A DNA stretch of 20,000 nt from an uncultured virus (IMG/VR IMGVR_UViG_3300035680_001736). Lineage: Duplodnaviria > Heunggongvirae > Uroviricota > Caudoviricetes. Positions 1,696 through 14,776 of the stretch are shown piece by piece. Where the stretch lies: the IMG/VR virus record IMGVR_UViG_3300035680_001736; one strand, given 5' to 3'. Below the pieces are notes generated by a model. The model was given only the letters and a program-made list of their open reading frames with translations, searched no databases and was not told the DNA's origin. Positions within the stretch are counted from its first letter, which is position 1; each line of letters opens with the position of its first letter. Both the position numbers and the translations under genes were made by a program.

Positions 1696-2703
1696 ATGGA
1701 TAAAAAGTTCGATTTCAAAGATATCACATTGGTTCCTGAAACCATATCATCAATTTCGTCTCGTAGTGAAATTGATATTTTGACTGATTCGCGTCATTTA
1801 CCCCTTATGGTATCACCAATGGATACTGTCATTGATTATACAAGTTCTATCGATTTTTGGCAAGAAAACATGGTTCTATGTTACCCAAGAGGTTTGGAAC
1901 CAACTTATACAGGTTTCAAATCAATATCATTAGATGAATTTGAGAAATTGGTAAATACCAAGTGTTCGGTACTACCAAAAATACTGGTTGATATTGCCAA
2001 CGGTCATATGGAAAAACTATACAATTTATCCAAAAAGTTTATGGAACAATACCCATATGGTGAATTAATGATTGGAAATATTGCCAACCCAAAAACATAT
2101 GAAAAATTTGCCGAGATTGGTGTTAAGTATGTTCGTGTTGGTATTGGTGGTGGTAGTGGTTGTTTAACATCGGCAAATACTGGTGTCCATTACCCAATGG
2201 CGTCTTTAATTAAGGAATGTTTTGAAATTAAAAAACAGTGGGGGTATAATTCTAAAATTGTTGCAGATGGAGGCTTCAGAAATTACGATGACATTATTAA
2301 AGCTCTCGCTTTGGGTGCTGACTATGTAATGTTAGGAGGTATGTTGAATAAAACTTTGGAGTCATGTTCAGACACTCTGTTGTTTGGTAAGTTTAAATTA
2401 TCCAAAGAACGAGCAATTAAAATTTGGGAAAAGTATCCGTTTATGAGAAAGTATTTCTACAAAAAGTTTAGAGGTATGAGTACAAAAGAAGTTCAGAAAA
2501 AATGGGGCCGAGGTAAAATTAAAACATCCGAAGGTGTCCATCGGATGAATAAAGTCGAATACACATTAACGGGTTGGACTGAAAACTTTAAGGATTATTT
2601 GAGGTCGGCAATGTCTTATACCAATTCAAAAAATCTTGAGTCATTCAAATACTCTGATTTTGTGTTCATAACAGAAAACGCCCGTAAAAGATACGATAAG
2701 TAA
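1696..2703 (+). CDS. guaC: GMP reductase (IMPDH/GMPR family, no CBS domains)
   Basis: FKDITLVP..SSRSEI, SPMDTV, DIANGH, catalytic loop RVGIGGGSGCLT, ADGG, GADYVMLGG, FRGMS, LRSAMSY; IMPDH not fully excluded. Confidence 0.8.
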   Translation: MDKKFDFKDITLVPETISSISSRSEIDILTDSRHLPLMVSPMDTVIDYTSSIDFWQENMVLCYPRGLEPTYTGFKSISLDEFEKLVNTKCSVLPKILVDIANGHMEKLYNLSKKFMEQYPYGELMIGNIANPKTYEKFAEIGVKYVRVGIGGGSGCLTSANTGVHYPMASLIKECFEIKKQWGYNSKIVADGGFRNYDDIIKALALGADYVMLGGMLNKTLESCSDTLLFGKFKLSKERAIKIWEKYPFMRKYFYKKFRGMSTKEVQKKWGRGKIKTSEGVHRMNKVEYTLTGWTENFKDYLRSAMSYTNSKNLESFKYSDFVFITENARKRYDK

Positions 2704-5207: not shown

Positions 5208-7085
5208 TTACTTAGGTTGTACTTCTTCAAAATCTACGTCTGAAACTTCTTCATCCATAGTTTGACCGCCTTCACCTTCAGAACCAGACTGACTATAAAT
5301 TCCTTGGGTAATTGTTTGAGATGTGATTGCAACTTTTGCAGTTGCGTCTCTAACCTTTTCAACTTCCTTCTCTTGTAGGGCTGTTTTTAATTCAGCCAAA
5401 GCATCGGTTAATTGAGTTTTTTGTTCATCGGTCATTTTTTCTTCTAAATCCTTTAGAGTTTTTTCAGCTTGGAACGCCATAGAATCTCCTTGATTTATTA
5501 TGTCAGCATTTTCACGAGCTTTAGCGTCCGCTTCGGCATTTAACTCAGCATCACGTTTCATTTGTTCAATTTCCTCTTTAGAAAGTCCTGTCGAACTTTC
5601 AATACGGATTGATTGCTCTTTGTCAGTGGCTTTGTCTTTTGCTGAAACATTGATAATACCGTTAGCATCGATGTCAAAAGTTACTTCGATTTGTGGAACT
5701 CCTCTCATTGCCGTTGGAAGACCATCAAGGAAGAAACGACCAATTGTTCTATTGTCTTGAGCCATTGCTCTTTCTCCCTGTAGAACGTGAATTTCTACTG
5801 ATGGTTGATTGTCAACTGCGGTTGAGAAAACTTGTGACTTTTTTGTCGGAATTGTTGTGTTTGACTCAATAAGTTTTGTGAATACTCCACCCATCGTTTC
5901 AATACCGAGTGAAAGTGGTGTTACATCCAACAACAATACGTCTTTAACGTCACCTGCGAGTACTCCTCCTTGAATTGCAGCACCAAGTGCTACAACTTCA
6001 TCAGGGTTAACTCCTTTTGATGGTTCTTTACCGAAGAACTTTTTAACTGCCTCTTGGATTGCAGGAATTCTAGTTGAACCTCCAACCAAGATAACTTCAT
6101 CGATGTCTTTTGGTTTCAAACCTGCGTTTTTCAAGGCCGATTTACATGGTGCAATTGTACGTTGTACCAAACTGTCAACCAACTGCTCGAACTTTGCCTT
6201 TGTCATTGTACGAACCAAGTGTTTTGGCATACCATCTACCGGCATAATGTAAGGAAGATTGATTTCCGTTGATGGTGAAGATGAAAGTTCAATCTTTGCT
6301 TTTTCAGCTCCTTCACGAAGACGCTGAAGTGCCATTGGGTCTTGATTCAAATCCAAACCATTTTCATCTTTGAACTCTTGAACGAGCCAGTCGATAATTG
6401 CTTGGTCAAAGTCATCACCACCTAGGTGTGTATCACCGTCAGTTGACAAAACTTCAAATACCCCATCACCAAGTTCAAGAACCGATACGTCGTGAGTACC
6501 ACCACCACAGTCAAACACAACAACTTTCATATCCTGACCTTTTTTGTCAAGACCATAGGCAAGTGCCGCCGCGGTTGGTTCGTTAATAATACGTTTAACA
6601 GTTAGACCTGCAATTTCACCGGCTTCTTTTGTTGCCTGACGTTGAGCATCATTGAAATATGCTGGTACTGTAATAACCGCATCAGTTACTGTTTCACCCA
6701 AATAGTCTTCGGCAGTTTGCTTCATTTTCTGAAGAACCATCGCCGAAATTTCCTGAGCTGAAAACTTCTTGTCCTCAATTTGAACACGAGGAGTGTTACC
6801 CTCACCTTTAACCACTTTATAAGGAACACGCTTGATTTCTTTTTTACTTTCATCGAAACTTGCTCCCATAAAACGCTTAATGGAGTAAACTGTTTTATCA
6901 GGATTTGTAACCGCTTGACGTTTTGCCGGGTCACCAATCTTTCTATCACCACCATTTGCAAAACCAACAATCGAAGGGGTGGTTCTTTTTCCTTCACTGT
7001 TTGTAATCACAACAGGTTCGCCATTTTCCATAACGGCAACACATGAATTTGTTGTTCCTAAATCAATACCTATAATTTTACCCAT
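5208..7085 (-). CDS. dnaK: Molecular chaperone DnaK (Hsp70), Bacteroidota-like
   Basis: [74 protein letters not shown] resembles Bacteroidota DnaK. Confidence 0.98.
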
Positions 7086-7228: not shown

Positions 7229-8269
7229 TTATTTTTCGAGTTCTAAAGTATATAATCTCATGAAATTTCTTTGCAGTTTGTCACCGGCCTTATTGATTCT
7301 TGGTTGGAAATTATTAATCAAATCTAACAAACCTTCAGTTTTTTCTATATACCGTGCCGGTTTTTCACCGTAAACTCTCATCCATTTGTAATAATCGGTC
7401 ATAAACCATTTATATAAATTGTTCAAAATAGACAGTAGTTTATCGGGGTTCACTTCTTGAATTTTATTTGTCAACTTATCAAAAAACGTATCGGCATCAA
7501 AGTTTTTCATGACTGATGCGTTGGACCAAAGTTTAGTTTTTTTGAATTCTTCAAAGGGTAATATTGATGTTTGGCTAACCGCCTCTTGTGATTTTGCATT
7601 TACTTCATATGGTTCTGAATAGTATATCATATCCAAAAATTCTTGCCAAACTTTGTAAATTTCTTTGTTTACGTTATAGTTTTTACCTCCAACCCAACTC
7701 AAGGTGGTATTAAATTGTTTTGCTCCTGATTCAGCCCTTCGATAACTCTCTAACATGTGATTACATTCGTGAATTATCGTATCTCTAAGGTCATATAGTG
7801 CTTTGTCTTTCAATTCTTCATTGAACTCAATCCCTATTTTAAAACTTATAAATAATTTTACATACAAAGTTTGAGTAATCTCCTCCAAAATATACTTAGG
7901 TAACTCAAGTGTGGGTGATTTTAAATATGACCCACCAAATGATTTTTTGTCTATTGATTGAAATCCTCCTCCTGACGTGAATCTGTTTTCTTTTGTATTT
8001 TTTGGAATTTTCAAACAAGAAAAATCAATTTCAATTTTTTCCACGGGTAACTCAATATAATCATCCATACTTGATTGAAAAATTTGTGAAATATCTTTCA
8101 AGTCTATAATGATTTTTTGTTTGGATGGAATTCTTGATTCCATAAATTCAAGGACCTTAGGTTCGAGTTTTTGGTATATCAAATTACTGTAGGACAAGGA
8201 AACCCGGGAGACTCCCAAATCTTCTTTAATAAGTGTTTTCAATTGGTTCTCAGATAACAAAACTTTCAT
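7229..8269 (-). CDS. HEXXH zincin-like protein with shared N-terminal leader (MKVLLSENQLKTLIKE)
   Basis: IIHECNHMLE ... YYSEPYEVNA; TATTTAT at 8274-8280. Confidence 0.65.
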   Translation of the reverse strand: MKVLLSENQLKTLIKEDLGVSRVSLSYSNLIYQKLEPKVLEFMESRIPSKQKIIIDLKDISQIFQSSMDDYIELPVEKIEIDFSCLKIPKNTKENRFTSGGGFQSIDKKSFGGSYLKSPTLELPKYILEEITQTLYVKLFISFKIGIEFNEELKDKALYDLRDTIIHECNHMLESYRRAESGAKQFNTTLSWVGGKNYNVNKEIYKVWQEFLDMIYYSEPYEVNAKSQEAVSQTSILPFEEFKKTKLWSNASVMKNFDADTFFDKLTNKIQEVNPDKLLSILNNLYKWFMTDYYKWMRVYGEKPARYIEKTEGLLDLINNFQPRINKAGDKLQRNFMRLYTLELEK

Positions 8270-8327
8270 ATCTATAAATATTACAAAAAAAAATTAAAAA
8301 ATATATTTAGTTTTCAACTTTATCTCG

Positions 8328-8334
8328 TATTTAT
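8328..8334 (+). promoter_or_regulatory. TATTTAT putative phage promoter element ahead of the leader peptide
   Basis: Same motif precedes about a dozen transcription units in this window. Confidence 0.5.
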
Positions 8335-8340
8335 TTCAAA

Positions 8341-8370
8341 ATGAACAAGAATTTAATAAATAATAAATAA
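8341..8370 (+). CDS. Asn-rich leader peptide MNKNLINNK (putative attenuator peptide)
   Basis: ATG AAC AAG AAT TTA ATA AAT AAT AAA TAA; 4 of 9 codons are Asn; lies between the promoter motif and a terminator. Confidence 0.65.
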   Translation: MNKNLINNK

Positions 8371-8374
8371 ACGC

Positions 8375-8400
8375 AAACCTCCTTCGGGAGGTTTTTTTTT
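8375..8400 (+). terminator. Intrinsic terminator in the 5' leader (attenuator)
   Basis: AAACCTCC-TTCG-GGAGGTTT with 9-T tract, ending 13 nt before ATG 8414; flanking genes are divergent, so no long gene ends here. Confidence 0.85.
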
Positions 8401-8413
8401 ACCCTAAAGTAAT

Positions 8414-9271
8414 ATGAAAAACACAAAAATTTATCACGAGTTGGTCCAAAAGATGAGGACCTTTTTCCTAAACAAAGGTTTTCTTGAGGTTCCGACCCAA
8501 TCAAGATTATCAATTCTCGCAGCATGTGAGAATCCACACTCAATCACAACGTTTGAGTATCAAGGTCAAATTTGGCCATTACCACAAACAGGTCAAATGT
8601 GGTTAGAGTATGAATTGTTACAAAATTCCGAATGGCCAGGTGTGTTCTGTATCTCAACATCATACAGACAAGAAAAAGACCCAATCCCAGGTCGTCACGA
8701 ATTAATCTTCCCAATGTTTGAATTCGAGTCAAAGGGTGGTATGAAAGAATTACTTAAATTAGAATCTGAATTACTTGCGTTTTTAGGTTTTGATTCTCCT
8801 GTTGAAGTGAATTATGACGATGTTTGTGAAGAATATGGCGGAGTTCCGATTTTGGAAAACGAACACGAAACTAAAATGTGGAAAGAAAAAGGTGATGTGG
8901 TGTCATTACAAAATTTCCCTGTTAGAACTAACCCATTTTGGAACATGAAGTCAGGTGAAGGTGACAAATTCAATAAAGTAGACGTTATTCTTTACGGTCA
9001 AGAAACAATTGGTTCTGCTGAAAGAAGTTGTGATGTTGATGAAATGAGACAAATGTTCTATACTATAGAAAACGGTGGTTATTCTGCCAAATTGTTTGAA
9101 TTGTTTGGTAAAGAAAGAGTTGAAAAAGAACTTGAAGAGTTTTTATCTCACAAATTCTTTAAAAGATTTGGTGGAGGTATTGGTTTAACTCGTCTTGCCA
9201 GAGCATATCAAATGATGAAAGACTCTCACGATGAATTACACATGAATTATGGTGATGTAAACAAATTTTGA
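8414..9271 (+). CDS. Class IIb aaRS catalytic-domain-only protein, AsnRS-like; probable asparagine synthetase (archaeal AsnA/AS-AR type)
   Basis: Motif 1 FFLNKGFLEVPT, QTGQMWLE (cf. AsnRS QSGQLYLE), motif 2 SYRQE..RHELIFPMFEFE, QETIGSAER, motif 3 GGGIGLTRL; no anticodon-binding OB domain; Asn-rich leader. Confidence 0.75.
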   Translation: MKNTKIYHELVQKMRTFFLNKGFLEVPTQSRLSILAACENPHSITTFEYQGQIWPLPQTGQMWLEYELLQNSEWPGVFCISTSYRQEKDPIPGRHELIFPMFEFESKGGMKELLKLESELLAFLGFDSPVEVNYDDVCEEYGGVPILENEHETKMWKEKGDVVSLQNFPVRTNPFWNMKSGEGDKFNKVDVILYGQETIGSAERSCDVDEMRQMFYTIENGGYSAKLFELFGKERVEKELEEFLSHKFFKRFGGGIGLTRLARAYQMMKDSHDELHMNYGDVNKF

Positions 9272-9439
9272 ATGAAAAATTTTAAGGTTAAAAATAGATA
9301 TACCAAAGAAATGTCAGATAAATTTTTATCCGACTACAAATCTTCTGGTGAATGTTCTGTTGAAAATCCCGACTTTTACGGTAATTGGAACTGGAAAAAA
9401 TACGGAACCGAAGAATATAAAAATTCTTTCAAAAAATAA
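9272..9439 (+). CDS. Small hypothetical protein (55 aa); not in ORF track
   Basis: TGA-ATG abutting upstream gene; MKNFKVKNRYTKEMSDKFLSDYKSSGECSVENPDFYGNWNWKKYGTEEYKNSFKK. Confidence 0.55.
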   Translation: MKNFKVKNRYTKEMSDKFLSDYKSSGECSVENPDFYGNWNWKKYGTEEYKNSFKK

Positions 9440-9442
9440 AAA

Positions 9443-9682
9443 TTACTGAATTTGACTCAAAGACATAATGGTGTCATTCGAAAGGGTGACACCATTTTTT
9501 GTTTCATAGGAAACATAACTTACCGATAAAACTTTATCTTCAGTTGGTATAAAAACTTCACCATCTAAGTTAGAAAAATACACACCCTGATTAGTTTCAA
9601 CTTTAACACCTGTCAAAGTTTCATCTGTTTGTGAATCTAAAAAAATGATTCTAAAAAATACTGTAATAAGAATTGTCTTCAT
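9443..9682 (-). CDS. Stand-alone CarboxypepD_reg-like (SusC/TonB-receptor N-terminal type) domain
   Basis: D..T.E.L.GV.V....G..SNLDG.......LSVSYVSYETK pattern. Confidence 0.6.
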   Translation of the reverse strand: MKTILITVFFRIIFLDSQTDETLTGVKVETNQGVYFSNLDGEVFIPTEDKVLSVSYVSYETKNGVTLSNDTIMSLSQIQ

Positions 9683-10124: not shown

Positions 10125-10804
10125 TTCTTCTTTGGTTTTTCTGACGCATACTTAACACCCATTATAGTTCCGACAATACTGAATGCATTTGTTAATAATA
10201 TACCAAACATATTACTCCAAGTTGAGCCAATTATTTGGGTATCTTGACCTGTGAACAATGCCACAGAATATAATGCCGTAGTAACTATTCCAACTCCAAT
10301 AATTACAATTAAAGCAACTCTTACAATTGTATTTATTAACTCAAATTGAGTTTTCTTTTGTAACACATCCAAATCATTTTCGGCATGTTGTTTTGCCTTT
10401 TCAGCATCAACCCTTGCTTGTTCGGATTTAACCATCTCCACCGTTAATTCTTCCGTCAACCTCAAATTATCCAATTTCCACTCGTTTAATTCTCTGTTTT
10501 GGACTTCAAATGTTAATTTAGATTCTTCAACTTCATTTAATGTTGTTTGAAGTTCGTCTAATATCTTTTGATTTTGGGCGTTTAAGTCGGATAGTTCTTT
10601 GTTTTGGGTTTGAATTTGTTTGGTAATGTCAAGTCTCTTCTTTCTATTTGCAACATCTCTTTCACCACACTTTTTAAGGTATTCTTTAAAATATTCATCC
10701 CCATCAGAATTAATTACCTTAACTATATTTCCTTCCAAAAATAAGTTTTTGGTTTCTGATAAGATAATTAATTCTTGTTTTATTTCAGGGGTGAATTTTA
10801 TCAT
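10121..10804 (-). CDS. Coiled-coil protein with two C-terminal TM helices
   Basis: Long E/Q/K/L-rich stretch then two hydrophobic helices; ATGA overlap with the receiver gene. Confidence 0.75.
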   Translation of the reverse strand: MIKFTPEIKQELIILSETKNLFLEGNIVKVINSDGDEYFKEYLKKCGERDVANRKKRLDITKQIQTQNKELSDLNAQNQKILDELQTTLNEVEESKLTFEVQNRELNEWKLDNLRLTEELTVEMVKSEQARVDAEKAKQHAENDLDVLQKKTQFELINTIVRVALIVIIGVGIVTTALYSVALFTGQDTQIIGSTWSNMFGILLTNAFSIVGTIMGVKYASEKPKKN

Positions 10805-11232
10805 TTGTAAATTTTAAACGGAGCGGTTCTGTTTTTGTAACCTTCATAATCTTTCTTAAACTCCTCCAATCTTGGTTCAATCTCATCTGATTTTATAATC
10901 CAAAATTGAGCACCTGACTGAATTGCCTTTGCCTGTTCTTCGGGTTCGTTTGAAGATGAAATAATTCCGATTACAACATTATTACCGTATTCAAAGTTAA
11001 TCTTTCTAATTAACTCAATACCATCAAAGGAAGACCCAATGATATTCAAATCAACAAACACACATTCAGGCTTATCAGAGCTATTTGATTGCCATTTTTC
11101 AAATAATTTGGCGGCCTCATCTGAACTATTCAAACTTTTTAAAGATAATGTTATATCAAGAAGCGAACAGCTATCTTCAAATACTAAATGGAATAAATCC
11201 TCGTCATCTACAAGTAAAATTGAATCAATCAT
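10801..11232 (-). CDS. Single-domain response regulator (receiver only)
   Basis: ILLVDDED, phospho-Asp in VFVDLNI, DGIEL, ISSS, FWIIK; no output domain. Confidence 0.92.
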   Translation of the reverse strand: MIDSILLVDDEDLFHLVFEDSCSLLDITLSLKSLNSSDEAAKLFEKWQSNSSDKPECVFVDLNIIGSSFDGIELIRKINFEYGNNVVIGIISSSNEPEEQAKAIQSGAQFWIIKSDEIEPRLEEFKKDYEGYKNRTAPFKIYK

Positions 11233-11240
11233 AGTTTTTT

Positions 11241-12494
11241 TTATTTTATTTTTATTTTCAGTTTAGTTCCTATCTCATTTTTCTCACATCTTACCAAAAA
11301 CTTGTGTTCTTGTAATATCGCAACACATATGTTTAATCCGAGTCCAGTTCCTGACTCTTTTTGCCCTTCTTTTCTTGTGTATGGTTTTGATAAATGGTCA
11401 AAATCTTTTTGGTCAATACCTCGTCCATTATCCTGAACCATTAACTCATCACCTTCCATATATATTTTTACAAATTTTGTTTCAGAATCATTATACTTCA
11501 ATCCATTCCTAATTAAGTTGTCTATTGCCGTACAGAATAGAGCTTCATTAACTTCTATGGTTGGTAGTTCCTCAATAATTACCTGACTATGATAAGCAGT
11601 TGATGATAAATAATCATTTAGTATCGCTCTTAAATCACATTCAGCTTTATTTAATACCACATCTTTTTTAACCAAATTGGTAAATTCATAAACACCTTTA
11701 TAAACTTTTTGTGAGTGTCTTAATCCCTCCTTAATCATTTTAAGGGGAGCCTCAATCTTTAAAGTTTCTATGTCCTCAGGTTTTAATCTTCTTTCCAAAG
11801 AACTTATACCTCTCGGGATATAAGTATTAATTCCAGAGTGCATGTCGTGTCTCAATATTTTAGCCGCGTGCTCGAGATAAGTGTTTTGTTTTTCAATTTC
11901 TTTTGACTTTTCAACAATTTCAGATATGTCTCTTGCAATTTTTAATACTCGATAGGTTTCTCCTGTTTCATTTATAATTGGATTGTAGGTGGCACTTAAA
12001 TAAATCTTGTTACCGTCCTTTTTCTTTCTGATAATGTCCCCACTAAAATAAACACCTGATTTAAGTTTGTTCCAAAAATTAATATACCCATTTGAATTTT
12101 TTTCATCATCAAAAACAAAAATACTATGATGTTTTCCTATAACCTCTTCTGATTTATACCCCATTGCATCCAAAAATGAATCATTGGCAAAACAAACTAT
12201 ACCATTAGTATCAAATTCAATCACAGGACTTGAACGATTAATCGCATCCATTCTATTTGCTAACGCTCTTTCTTTTTGTGTGATTTTTTCAGTAAGTTTT
12301 TTATTTTCCCTTTCATTCTTAATATATTGTCTGATAAAGGAATATAAAAAATATGTTATTGTCAAAAATAGAATATATTCCGACCCCCTCGTAACTGGTG
12401 ATGAAGGAGTGATATCAAGTAATACTGTAGTTTTCAGGATTAAGAAAACAACTACTATTAATGAAATTAAGTTTAATTTTAATTTTAACGACAT
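11241..12494 (-). CDS. Membrane PAS-domain sensor histidine kinase
   Basis: 2 N-terminal TM; PAS/PAC (IEFDTNG..AN..F...GY..EEVIGKHHS...FW...RKKKDG...YNPI); H-box LRHDMHS; N box NLIRNGLKY; DNGRGI; GTGLGL. Confidence 0.93.
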   Translation of the reverse strand: MSLKLKLNLISLIVVVFLILKTTVLLDITPSSPVTRGSEYILFLTITYFLYSFIRQYIKNERENKKLTEKITQKERALANRMDAINRSSPVIEFDTNGIVCFANDSFLDAMGYKSEEVIGKHHSIFVFDDEKNSNGYINFWNKLKSGVYFSGDIIRKKKDGNKIYLSATYNPIINETGETYRVLKIARDISEIVEKSKEIEKQNTYLEHAAKILRHDMHSGINTYIPRGISSLERRLKPEDIETLKIEAPLKMIKEGLRHSQKVYKGVYEFTNLVKKDVVLNKAECDLRAILNDYLSSTAYHSQVIIEELPTIEVNEALFCTAIDNLIRNGLKYNDSETKFVKIYMEGDELMVQDNGRGIDQKDFDHLSKPYTRKEGQKESGTGLGLNICVAILQEHKFLVRCEKNEIGTKLKIKIK

Positions 12495-12593: not shown

Positions 12594-13283
12594 TTAAATA
12601 AACTCCAATTTATTCGTTACAGGGTCCCATTCTACCGTTAGTGGTTTTTGGGTGTATTGATACTGTTCGTCTAATACCGAGGCATTGATGAAGTGAGTAT
12701 CTCCGTCAAAAACATAACCATACCCTGAATGTATGTGCCCGCAGACATGAATTTTAGGTTTAATTGTTTTAATTCTTTTTGTCAGTAATTCACATCCAAG
12801 ATTATCATACTGACCCATAATTGTATCCAAATAACCAAATGCCGGTCCGTGAGTAATTAATATGTCAGTATCATCAGGAATGTCATTCCACTTCTGTGTA
12901 AGTTTATGACCATTCTTTGGTAGATTAAACGCCCAATTATAGAACTCGGGCTGCCATGGACTACCATAAATCTTTACATAATTTTCCGTATCAACTCCGT
13001 AACCAAGAAAACTATCTTGAAGATAAACAATGTCATTATAAAAACCGACAACCTCTTTGGCCATTTCGGGTTCCTTTTCAAACCCAAAGTCGTGATTACC
13101 GGCAATGAATGTCTTTACAGTATAATTTTCCAAACTGTCAAACCACTTGCAGAATTTTTGGATTTCATACTTATAACCCATTGATGAGATATCACCAGCG
13201 TGAATCAGTAAGTCACCTCCTGGCAAATCTTCAGTAATTTGCTTGTGTTTGTTGTGAGTATCTGATATAAAAGTTATTTTCAT
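12594..13283 (-). CDS. Calcineurin-like metallophosphoesterase (MPPED/239FB-like)
   Basis: SDTH, HAGD, GNHD, THGP, GHIH motifs. Confidence 0.92.
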   Translation of the reverse strand: MKITFISDTHNKHKQITEDLPGGDLLIHAGDISSMGYKYEIQKFCKWFDSLENYTVKTFIAGNHDFGFEKEPEMAKEVVGFYNDIVYLQDSFLGYGVDTENYVKIYGSPWQPEFYNWAFNLPKNGHKLTQKWNDIPDDTDILITHGPAFGYLDTIMGQYDNLGCELLTKRIKTIKPKIHVCGHIHSGYGYVFDGDTHFINASVLDEQYQYTQKPLTVEWDPVTNKLEFI

Positions 13284-13801
13284 TTTTTTACTTGGGTTTC
13301 CTCCAATTCAACAGATGTTGGTCTGCCAAAGATAAGAACATTTACTTTAAGTTTACCTTTCTCTTTATCAATAAATTCAATGTTTCCCTTAAAGGATGTA
13401 AATGGACCTTCAGTTACAGTAACTTCATCTCCAACACTGAATATGTCTGAAAAACTTTTTGTTTTGTTTTCTTCGTGAATTCCAATCATTCGGTTTACTT
13501 CTTGGTCTGATACAATTTGGATATTTCCAGCTCTGTCAGACAACAATCCCGTTGCTCCATCAATTTTTTTAACAACTTGTTTTAATTCCCCAATTGCGGA
13601 TGTTTCAACAAAAACATAACCAGGAAACAAAACTTTTTCACGTTGTGTTTTTTTACCATCTTTCGTGGCAAATACTTTTTCCATTGGAACTACAACTCTT
13701 CCGATTACCCCATTGAGTTCCCCTTTGTCGGCTTCTTTTAAAATTCTTTCTGAGACTTTTCTCTCACGATTTGCTTGTGCTCTTACAATGTACCATTCCA
13801 T
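13280..13801 (-). CDS. nusG: Transcription termination/antitermination factor NusG
   Basis: WYIV, LFPGYVFVE (NGN); VGDEVTVTEGPF (KOW); IFGRPTSVEL. Confidence 0.95.
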   Translation of the reverse strand: MEWYIVRAQANRERKVSERILKEADKGELNGVIGRVVVPMEKVFATKDGKKTQREKVLFPGYVFVETSAIGELKQVVKKIDGATGLLSDRAGNIQIVSDQEVNRMIGIHEENKTKSFSDIFSVGDEVTVTEGPFTSFKGNIEFIDKEKGKLKVNVLIFGRPTSVELEETQVKK

Positions 13802-14404: not shown

Positions 14405-14644
14405 TCATCGTATTAAATTATGAGGATTTATGTCGTGTTCTTCCATCAATTCACGTAGTTTTTCATAAACTGCGTCAACTCCTTTGTGATAACCGTCTTC
14501 TTCATCATATCCGTTGGTCAAACCGCGGTATGAGTTGGTCATTATCTCCCAAAGTACAAGTGCCATGTCGGTTGCCTTCACGCAACGCTCGTGAGCCATC
14601 TTATCATCGATGTCATCCAAATCAAATGTTAGTTTTGCTTTCAT
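14405..14644 (-). CDS. Hypothetical protein (probable start MKAKLTFDL at 14644)
   Basis: TATCTTTG (TAnnTTTG) at 14649-14656 directly precedes this ATG. Confidence 0.7.
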   Translation of the reverse strand: MKAKLTFDLDDIDDKMAHERCVKATDMALVLWEIMTNSYRGLTNGYDEEDGYHKGVDAVYEKLRELMEEHDINPHNLIR

Positions 14645-14673
14645 GGTACAAAGATAAGGCAAGTTTTTTAATG

Positions 14674-14708
14674 AAAAAAGGGACTTAACAAAAATTAAGT
14701 CCCTTTTT
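14674..14708. terminator. Strong bidirectional intrinsic terminator
   Basis: AAAAAGGGACTTAA-N6-TTAAGTCCCTTTTT, 14-bp arms. Confidence 0.85.
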
Positions 14709-14742
14709 CTATATATAGGCTCTCTGATGAGAGTGATAGTTT
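14674..14742 (-). ncRNA. Candidate ~70-nt small RNA or terminating leader
   Basis: Promoter, then CTCTC-ATCA-GAGAG hairpin, CTATATATAG palindrome and terminator; no ATG. Confidence 0.45.
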
Positions 14743-14747
14743 TGATA

Positions 14748-14776
14748 AATATACCTAAAAATCAAAAATATGTCAA
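14748..14776 (-). promoter_or_regulatory. sigma70-like promoter TTGACA-N17-TATATT overlapping TATTTAT
   Basis: Direct reading on the minus strand. Confidence 0.7.

Follow-up and report, generated by a model that had tools for sequence, protein, structure and literature searches.

In the pyrBI operon of Escherichia coli and Salmonella, a leader open reading frame (ORF), pyrL, runs up to or into an intrinsic terminator, and a ribosome that follows the RNA polymerase closely blocks the terminator hairpin. In the rph-pyrE operon of E. coli, the upstream ORF ends a few nucleotides before the terminator, and its translation suppresses termination. Here, we analyze a candidate attenuator in a stretch of 20,000 nucleotides (nt) of DNA from an uncultured virus of the class Caudoviricetes (hereafter, the window), where a 9-codon mini-ORF rich in asparagine (Asn) codons and an intrinsic terminator precede the gene for a 285-amino acid (aa) protein resembling the catalytic domain of asparaginyl-tRNA synthetase (AsnRS). 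The arrangement is conserved in related lake phages, and its geometry suggests a switch of the pyrBI/rph-pyrE kind that responds to Asn codons. This giant lake phage is represented by an 81.7-kb IMG/VR virus record (IMGVR_UViG_3300035680_001736) with an estimated completeness of 28%, of which the window makes up the final 20 kb.

A first reading of the window (the original prediction) had proposed leader-peptide attenuation of the trp/his/thr type in a probable phage, with TATTTAT as the promoter motif and a terminator acting only on leader transcripts. Through this device, an asparagine synthetase encoded by an AsnRS-like catalytic-domain gene would be made only when Asn is scarce, with the caveat that AAT codons are common by chance in AT-rich DNA.

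Anatomy and conservation of the leader unit

Direct reading of the sequence recovered every element of the original prediction at its position (Table 1). The mini-ORF has Asn at codons 2, 4, 7, and 8 (8344, 8350, 8359, and 8362), that is, at 4 of the 8 codons after Met. The hairpin, AAACCTCC-TTCG-GGAGGTTT (8375–8394), begins after a gap of 4 nt from the mini-ORF stop and is joined by a T-run of 9 (8392–8400). RNA folding leaves the first 34 nt unpaired, and the centroid structure consists of the hairpin alone, at −11.5 kcal/mol. Short Logan contigs from three metatranscriptome runs match the gene only (e.g., X17, 8416–8696, with no differences, and X20, 8797–9049) and leave the leader uncovered; as such contigs cannot show RNA ends and DNA carry-over is possible, we draw no conclusion from them.

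In viral contigs, at least 597 relatives of the AsnRS-like protein were found. Loci were taken 80 per scan, out of approximately 600 or more viral loci, and the lake-phage set pooled 181 of them, including the window's own locus; removal of 74 loci whose 200-nt upstream region duplicated another, 6 in which the stretch of upstream DNA was too short, and 1 lacking a start left 100 distinct upstream regions. A terminator was scored when a hairpin with a T-run lay within 90 nt of the gene ATG, and a mini-ORF when an ATG-initiated frame of 6 to 30 codons had its stop between 30 nt before the hairpin and the hairpin end. Hairpin and T-run were found in 87 of the 100 regions, compared with 1 of 500 shuffled upstream regions that passed the terminator rule, and 78 of these 87 regions also contain a mini-ORF. 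Conservation of an Asn-rich mini-ORF plus terminator upstream of homologues, with AAT/AAC exchange, was thus borne out.

The 59 distinct leaders encode 52 distinct peptides, which fall into 29 families at 50% identity, and stems are unrelated between leader families (CCTCC/GGAGG, TCCTGACA/TGTCAGGA, TCCCCTC/GAGGGGA, and GTCCCTA/TAGGGAC), so that across these loci it is the predicted structure, not the stem sequence, that is kept. The nearest upstream ORFs belong to 29 unrelated clusters in 77 loci and are divergent in 55 of the 77; the window's own 346-aa neighbor recurs in 4 of 80 loci. Judged from these neighborhoods, the leader unit travels with the AsnRS-like gene, and its recurrence marks it as a real, conserved cis-regulatory unit. 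The 55-aa ORF, which is probably co-transcribed with the AsnRS-like gene, lies outside the conserved unit and was rejected as a partner of the device, given that tblastn retrieved it in 0 of 80 related loci.

Three further features of these upstream regions were recorded. Directly after the T-run, 56 of the 87 regions carry GCCC (48) or ACCC (8) despite their differing stems (8401–8404 in the window), and these tetranucleotides are not found at other terminators of this phage. In four loci (L019, L025, L031, and L076), an upstream gene of 79 or 93 aa ends 8–16 nt before the hairpin, and L019 carries a mini-ORF besides its upstream gene. Eight of the 13 terminator-less regions have another 5' region (a GATATATA-like motif, a hairpin, A10, a TTTCT-like motif, and ATG); they form a subclade (L021, L023, L039, L040, L048, L059, L191, and L196) in which this alternative region, devoid of T-run and mini-ORF, lies ~75 nt before the gene ATG.

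The prediction of an attenuator upstream of homologues holds for the lake-phage clade and fails for the marine cyanophage clade (P-SSM7-like, 66 distinct upstream regions), where the leader device was not found. All 66 cyanophage regions carry TAAATA, which we take to be the T4 late-promoter consensus, within 40 nt of the ATG, at 20–24 nt in 64 of them. Where a terminator is present (18 regions), TAAATA lies 3' of it in 18 of 18; the predicted cyanophage order is the ordinary one of terminator, promoter, and gene, without a leader.

TATTTAT precedes 29 of the 86 crudely called genes of this genome, at two classes of distance from the ATG, 4–7 nt (8 genes, including the divergent gene starting at 8269 and the histidine kinase gene) and 13–20 nt. 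This agrees with its designation as a promoter motif and makes it a general promoter motif of this phage. Because the leader ATG lies 6 nt past the motif, it stands in a normal gene-start context for this phage, and the start of the divergent gene has an architecture matching that of the leader start; we infer a leaderless or near-leaderless leader transcript whose start coincides with the ATG or closely precedes it. Within 30 nt upstream of the related mini-ORFs, TATTTA is found in 71 of 78 cases, at 5–9 or 15–18 nt, TATATTTAT being the form of the motif upstream of most related leaders. The spacer between the T-run and the gene contains the promoter motif in 1 of 87 regions. Since the promoter stands before the leader and almost never in the spacer, transcription of the gene must cross the terminator; together with the divergent orientation of the upstream gene (7229–8269), this upholds the view that the terminator acts only on leader transcripts.

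The arrangement is also unusual within this phage. Among 30 terminator-like sites in the 81.7-kb fragment, the order promoter, ORF, terminator, and gene occurs at the leader site only. Two of the 30 terminators, the leader's and one behind a tRNA gene, are followed by a gene start and not preceded by the end of a gene on the same strand, which led us to reject promoter-terminator-gene as a general design of this phage; the usual order elsewhere in the fragment is gene end, terminator, TATTTAT, and next gene. A second promoter-leader-terminator-gene site was noted on the minus strand of the window (14643–14776). It consists of TTGACA, 17 nt, TATATT/TATTTAT, a leader of ~40 nt with a small hairpin and neither ATG nor ORF, and a strong terminator (AAAGGGACTTAA...TTAAGTCCCTTT plus T-run), with the gene ATG (14643) 29 nt further on.

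Asn accounts for 185 of the 824 codons (22.5%) in the 59 distinct leaders, against 6.2% and 4.8% in the other two frames, 7.8% in other intergenic mini-ORFs of the same loci (361 of 4,646 codons in 356 ORFs), and 6.8% in phage genes. In 1,000 shuffles that keep the composition of each leader and keep the frame open, 95.5 ± 8.7 Asn codons (~11.6%) were obtained, and 0 of 1,000 reached 185. Restricting the set to a single leader from each family gives 91 Asn codons of 438, versus 50.3 ± 6.7 in shuffles, with 0 of 1,000 reaching the observed value. Tandem Asn-Asn occurs in 30 of the 59 leaders versus 8.7 ± 2.6 expected. Being frame-specific and in excess of composition, the enrichment is not explained by the chance abundance of AAT in AT-rich DNA that the caveat had raised. 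We also considered that the AAT codons merely complement minus-strand TATTTAT. This holds for the window, where ATAAATA occurs twice (8357–8370) and the tandem minus-strand motifs account for Asn-7 and Asn-8, in the window's leader family only. The idea was rejected because other families use AAC AAT, AAC AAC, and the like without the motif and the frame-specific enrichment would go unexplained. The two tandem minus-strand TATTTAT motifs themselves (ATAAATAATAAATA on the plus strand) may serve as extra promoters for the divergent gene.

Table 1. Features of the leader locus, of the remainder of the window, and of tRNA genes next to related genes. Positions are those of the window unless a locus is named.
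Feature	Position	Strand	Basis or remark
Promoter motif TATTTAT	8328–8334	+	6 nt 5' of mini-ORF ATG; sequence
Second promoter-like motif TATATTTA, possible alternative start	8302–8309	+	31 nt 5' of mini-ORF ATG; sequence only
Leader mini-ORF MNKNLINNK*	8341–8370	+	ATG 8341, TAA 8368–8370
Intrinsic terminator, stem AAACCUCC/GGAGGUUU, UUCG loop	8375–8394, U-run to 8400	+	Sequence, terminator scan, folding
Spacer ACCCTAAAGTAAT, 13 nt, too short for a promoter	8401–8413	+	Sequence
Controlled gene, 285-aa AsnRS/AspRS-like ORF, ATG 8414	8414–9271	+	ORF list, domain match
55-aa ORF overlapping the gene stop (TGAATG)	9272–9439	+	ORF list
Terminator closing the transcription unit; 13-bp stem, GAAA loop, T-rich tail	9467–9496	+	Terminator scan
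Divergent 346-aa gene	7229–8269	-	ORF list
TATTTAT (8280–8274), 4 nt, then ATG 8269 of the divergent gene	8267–8280	-	Motif search
IMPDH/GMP-reductase-family protein	1696–2703	+	Domain match
Full-length DnaK (Hsp70)	5208–7085	-	6e-257
PAS histidine kinase with adjoining response regulator	10801–12494	-	Domain matches
NusG-family protein	13280–13801	-	Pfam NusG 5.9e-19; PHROG "transcription antiterminator" 1.1e-29
tRNA(GUU) examples	L082:2278–2364; L083:2298–2385; L092:1558–1642		tRNA scan

Proposed operation of the leader and alternative explanations

An energy test of 39 leaders revealed no antiterminator. Leader plus 5' arm of the terminator fold with a mean of −1.9 kcal/mol versus −2.4 kcal/mol behind shuffled leaders, 31 of the 39 leave the 5' arm unpaired, and the terminator core has a mean of −9.6 kcal/mol. 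The window's value is 0.0 kcal/mol; its leader consists of A and U only and has no stretch able to pair with CCUCC or GGAGG. Because no antiterminator can form, the trp/his/thr-type switch of the original prediction is unsupported, and direct occlusion of the hairpin by the ribosome therefore remains.

The distances along the leader are compatible with such occlusion. The stop codon lies within 10 nt of the core stem in 57 of the 59 leaders, within 7 nt in 52, and inside the hairpin in 19, a distribution that the mini-ORF rule narrows by design. Among the 185 Asn codons, 167 lie at least 10 nt and 152 at least 13 nt upstream of the stem. For the window, the distance to the A-U stem base is 4 nt from a ribosome at the stop codon and 10–13 nt from one at Asn-7 or Asn-8; to the G-C core, it is 7 nt and 13–16 nt, respectively. 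According to Li et al. (2016; PMC4824070), termination at tR2 fell from ~90% to <10% when a stop codon was shifted from 28 to 5 bp ahead of this terminator, folding requires ~10–15 nt of free RNA separating the stem from the A site, and, quoting Roland et al., the pyrBI boundary is steep, a 3-bp shift relieving ~60% of repression. The same principle is stated for ribosome stalling and intrinsic terminators in PMC5021804.

On this geometry we favor, with moderate confidence, a ribosome-occlusion attenuator of the pyrBI/rph-pyrE type that is tuned to Asn codons and ON when Asn-tRNA is plentiful; the placement of stop and Asn codons points the opposite way from the earlier claim that the enzyme is made only when Asn is scarce. 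Transcription would start at TATTTAT, and the mini-ORF would be read as a leaderless or near-leaderless message by a ribosome presumably coupled to the polymerase. With ample Asn-tRNA, this ribosome would pass the Asn codons undelayed and reach the stop codon, where it would cover or abut the 5' arm while the RNA polymerase is on the U-run; the hairpin would be blocked, and the polymerase would read through into the AsnRS-like gene. When charged tRNA-Asn is short, the ribosome would wait at Asn codons at least 10 nt upstream and leave the hairpin free to form, so that transcription would stop and the gene would be OFF.

Several observations weigh against ribosome occlusion tuned to Asn codons, besides the narrowing of the stop-codon distribution by the search rule. 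Kinetically, the leader is only ~60 nt long; by the time the polymerase leaves the U-run, a ribosome must have engaged the nascent 5' end and read through 9 codons. A search of the leader for a pause hairpin or other pause signal was negative. The stall sites in the window (Asn-7 and Asn-8) are only 6–9 nt from the stop, a narrow margin between the two states, and a stall at any of the 18 of 185 Asn codons that lie <10 nt from the stem would block the hairpin, with the opposite effect. Among the distinct lake-phage regions, 13 of 100 lack the terminator, the marine cyanophages lack the device altogether, and leaders with 0 or 1 Asn exist (MRKKTQK, MITKKKFTK, and MSKNLQHI). Within families, substitutions by codon position number 70/94/114, a mild third-position excess only among pairs that are non-independent, and 68 changes are synonymous as against 141 non-synonymous. 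Finally, if the enzyme makes asparagine, a gene that is ON when Asn is plentiful would be illogical.

The leaders with 0 or 1 Asn are also what one might expect of a translated leader in front of a leaky terminator that provides a low, translation-dependent level of expression or insulation, with Asn favored for reasons other than sensing, for instance efficient leaderless initiation or an unstructured, A-rich 5' end. The leaders are indeed less structured than their shuffles, and their peptide sequences are poorly conserved. Lys codons (AAA/AAG), however, are equally A-rich and yet unenriched (121 versus 140 expected), whereas Asn is enriched ~2-fold and Asn-Asn >3-fold; moreover, in pairwise comparisons within families, which are not independent of one another, Asn columns were kept in 181 cases (19 with AAT/AAC exchange) and lost in 29. 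We therefore consider a leader that senses nothing unlikely.

Under the classical logic of attenuation, a stall at the Asn codons would prevent termination, and scarcity of Asn-tRNA would turn on synthesis of the enzyme; such a response would fit an asparagine synthetase or an enzyme dedicated to charging tRNA-Asn. Leaders with regulatory codons usually induce on starvation, the protein is AsnRS-like, and its family is tied to Asn-tRNA by the tRNA-Asn(GUU) genes that follow it in cyanophages (see below). In some families, an Asn pair sits at the stem base (NNPF*, NNPIIY*), and a stall there would cover the 5' arm; these stem-proximal Asn codons are, however, largely forced by the stem sequence AAT-CCC. 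With the antiterminator structure absent and 167 of the 185 Asn codons at least 10 nt from the stem, it is the stalled ribosome that leaves the hairpin free and the finished one that sits on it, and induction on starvation appears rather improbable. The choice of direction is linked to what the enzyme does: if it makes Asn or charges tRNA-Asn, the classical direction is expected, and if Asn or aspartate (Asp) is drawn into nucleotide synthesis, a gene that is ON when Asn is plentiful is sensible.

We regard as quite improbable that a phage antiterminator, for which the NusG homologue encoded at 13280–13801 would be a candidate, loads onto the leader RNA or DNA, with the terminator providing temporal control and the ORF being incidental. 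A NusG-family gene in the window and the recurrence of an AAYYTA motif in the leaders speak for such a factor. This motif (Asn-Leu), however, lies in the ORF frame in 26 of its 28 occurrences, at five different distances from the ATG, and the Asn enrichment is frame-specific. In addition, the 81.7-kb fragment, at an estimated 28% completeness, has no other terminator between a promoter and its gene, save the tRNA-gene terminator and the ORF-less site at 14643–14776.

That promoter, ORF, and terminator, which do make a complete minimal unit, form a stand-alone micro-gene for a peptide or short RNA, with the AsnRS-like gene expressed independently, is very improbable given that the gene ATG lies only 13 nt past the T-run in the window, that 1 of 87 spacers contains the promoter motif, that the AsnRS-like gene is the constant companion of the unit in 29 different neighborhoods, and that the peptides lack conservation. 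Taken together, the non-sensing or other readings are less likely than an Asn-tuned switch, though far from negligible.

The AsnRS-like protein family and its genomic associations

The product of the controlled gene matches Pfam PF00152 (tRNA-synt_2; 6.7e-14) and phrog_29758 (4.9e-93), and NCBIfam asnS gives 22–24 bits versus cut-offs of 343–414, the protein scoring far below every NCBIfam cut-off. Its AlphaFold2 model has a predicted local distance difference test score (pLDDT) of 95.6. The best matches in a fold search were AsnRS 1x54 and 8tc9 (6e-18), followed by aspartyl-tRNA synthetase (AspRS), archaeal AsnA 3rl6 (6.7e-16, TM-score 0.70), and GenX. A profile search gave AsnRS 2xti (1.2e-15), archaeal AspRS (4e-14), and archaeal AsnA 3p8t (1.1e-7); a single-sequence search of the PDB gave no match. 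The 285 aa align from about residue 140 onward of AsnRS chains, the N-terminal anticodon-binding domain of the oligonucleotide/oligosaccharide-binding (OB) fold being absent, and the 2xti profile alignment covers the motif-2 region. We take SYR.E...RH to be motif 2 and GGGIGLTR near the C-terminus to be motif 3. The protein is thus predicted to be a class IIb synthetase catalytic core (AsnRS/AspRS-like) without an anticodon domain, of putative function, in keeping with the AsnRS-like catalytic-domain gene of the original prediction. Its further designation as an asparagine synthetase fared less well, since the protein resembles AsnRS and archaeal-type AspRS more closely than archaeal AsnA and its relatives are tied to PyrD/PyrF or tRNA-Asn; by sequence, such a role is possible but not indicated. 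The viral family comprises 664 cluster representatives at E-values up to 0.001, and a Protein Atlas search yielded viral "tRNA ligase" clusters only. In the part of PMC3037559 available, the cyanophage gene is listed in a table solely as "tRNA ligase, T4-GC 194."

One set of associations leads to pyrimidine synthesis. Among 14 longer representatives of the family, one has PyrD fused to the AsnRS-like domain (P0007) and another has the AsnRS-like domain fused to PyrF (P0031). For cellular homologues, 5 loci in metagenome-assembled genomes (MAGs) were annotated (L175–L179). L177 adjoins pyrF and a PyrD-phosphoribosyltransferase fusion, L179 adjoins a DHO_dh gene, and L178 is near CTP synthase; the neighborhoods of L175 and L176 are virus-like or purine-linked instead. 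The L175 contig, labeled Neomarinimicrobiota, has as neighbors Erv1/Alr, DUF5759, patatin, thioredoxin, RNase HII, and the ribonucleotide reductase large subunit, a set that is presumably typical of giant viruses of eukaryotes, and it may be viral DNA binned with a bacterium. In the five MAG genomes, orotidine monophosphate (OMP) decarboxylase was found in 5 of 5, the N-domain of aspartate/ornithine transcarbamoylase (ATCase/OTCase) in 1 of 5, and domain D3 of the carbamoyl-phosphate synthetase (CPSase) large subunit in 0 of 5; the searches for all three enzymes were positive in 14 of 14 control genomes. In the bacterial order to which one of these genomes belongs, the family is present in 5 of 81 genomes, and DHO_dh exceeded the cut-off in 2 of these 5 (adjacent in both) versus 3 of the 76 others, a co-occurrence that is suggestive and, the MAGs being incomplete, not clean. 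As judged from these gene neighborhoods and fusions, part of the family, though not all of it, has a genuine link to pyrimidine synthesis.

The other association is with tRNA-Asn. In 65 of 72 cyanophage loci (L093–L172), a tRNA with anticodon GUU starts 6–11 nt 3' of the AsnRS-like gene (examples in Table 1). At 83–94 nt, with an 8-bp acceptor stem, a 3-bp D stem, and a long variable arm, it is unusual for a tRNA-Asn. Five of the other 7 loci have an odd tRNA-like gene of 94–96 nt at the same place, and a 49%-identical relative (L092) shows the same gene-tRNA arrangement. These genes suggest a dedicated enzyme-tRNA pair in marine cyanophages. A tRNA scan found no tRNA-Asn beside the lake-phage or cellular homologues and no tRNA gene in the window.

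The family is thus tied to asparagine by three lines (fold, leader codons, and tRNA) and to pyrimidine synthesis by one. In a speculative and, in our estimate, doubtful combination of these lines, the leader would act as an asparagine-sufficiency gate on an undescribed enzyme supplying pyrimidine synthesis from Asn or Asp, for example, through ATP-dependent formation of dihydroorotate. By this route, carbamoyl-phosphate synthetase, aspartate transcarbamoylase, and dihydroorotase would be bypassed, and the phage would channel Asn into nucleotides only when translation has some to spare. In marine cyanophages, the enzyme would pair with the dedicated odd tRNA(GUU), which would indicate a tRNA-linked step.

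As to the source of the DNA, the 81.7-kb record was found to carry T4-type major capsid, portal, prohead protease, and terminase genes, which, in an IMG/VR virus contig, substantiates its assignment to a probable phage. The record also encodes a ClpB-like ATPase and a 3,998-aa ORF, and near-identical DNA is present in lake-water metagenomes. One phage protein of the record bears a type-IX-secretion sorting domain (Por_Secre_tail), which is typical of Bacteroidota; this is a hint of a Bacteroidota host, short of proof. The phage NusG homologue could affect transcription-translation coupling or termination at the leader.

Significance and comparison with known systems

Literature searches on Asn leaders, phage leader-peptide attenuation, and an aminoacyl-tRNA synthetase (aaRS)-like pyrimidine enzyme, supplements aside, returned nothing that describes the device, nor did a term search of the available part of PMC2965389. 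At gathering score, Rfam had 0 matches in the whole window, and no curated leader or attenuator family fits. If the proposed switch is real, it would be the first asparagine-reading leader-peptide attenuator, none being found in the searched literature or Rfam, and a rare instance in which a phage senses an amino acid through a cis-element of its own. It would also be a natural switch built from the distance between stop codon and terminator alone, without an alternative RNA fold. The minimal 60-nt unit of promoter, 9 codons, and hairpin could serve as a small synthetic part. The controlled enzyme would likewise be flagged as worth assaying, belonging to a widespread viral aaRS-like family with links to PyrD/PyrF and an unusual tRNA-Asn.

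The enzyme resembles archaeal AsnA (3P8T and 3RL6) and the catalytic domains of AsnRS (1X54, 8TC9, and 2XTI) in being a class IIb core of ~290 aa without an anticodon-binding domain. It differs from archaeal AsnA in matching true AsnRS and archaeal-type AspRS better, and we know of no PyrD/PyrF fusion of AsnA.

With the leaders trpL, hisL, thrL, leuL, and pheL, the leader shares a mini-ORF rich in one amino acid with tandem codons and an intrinsic terminator before the structural gene; unlike them, it has neither a 2:3 antiterminator nor a 1:2 pause hairpin, and its logic is probably inverted. The repression of tR2 described in Li et al. (2016) follows the measured rule of stop-to-hairpin distance that the device appears to exploit, whereas the tR2 system is an engineered E. 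coli construct behind a long gene, with no natural sensor. The four loci with an upstream gene of 79 or 93 aa ending 8–16 nt before the hairpin (L019, L025, L031, and L076) are like rph-pyrE, where, in contrast, the upstream ORF is a full gene, the signal is uridine triphosphate (UTP), and no regulatory codon is enriched. A further parallel is pyrBI. The signal there is the UTP-dependent slowing of RNA polymerase, whereas here it is presumed to be the speed of the ribosome on Asn codons; in addition, the present leader, which looks leaderless, begins 5–9 or 15–18 nt past a phage promoter motif, and the device is found in a phage, where it would control an aaRS-like gene. We make no claim that the device belongs to the pyr regulon type; it would work like the pyr attenuators, with which it shares a short ORF reaching the terminator, no need of an antiterminator hairpin, and read-through upon full translation.

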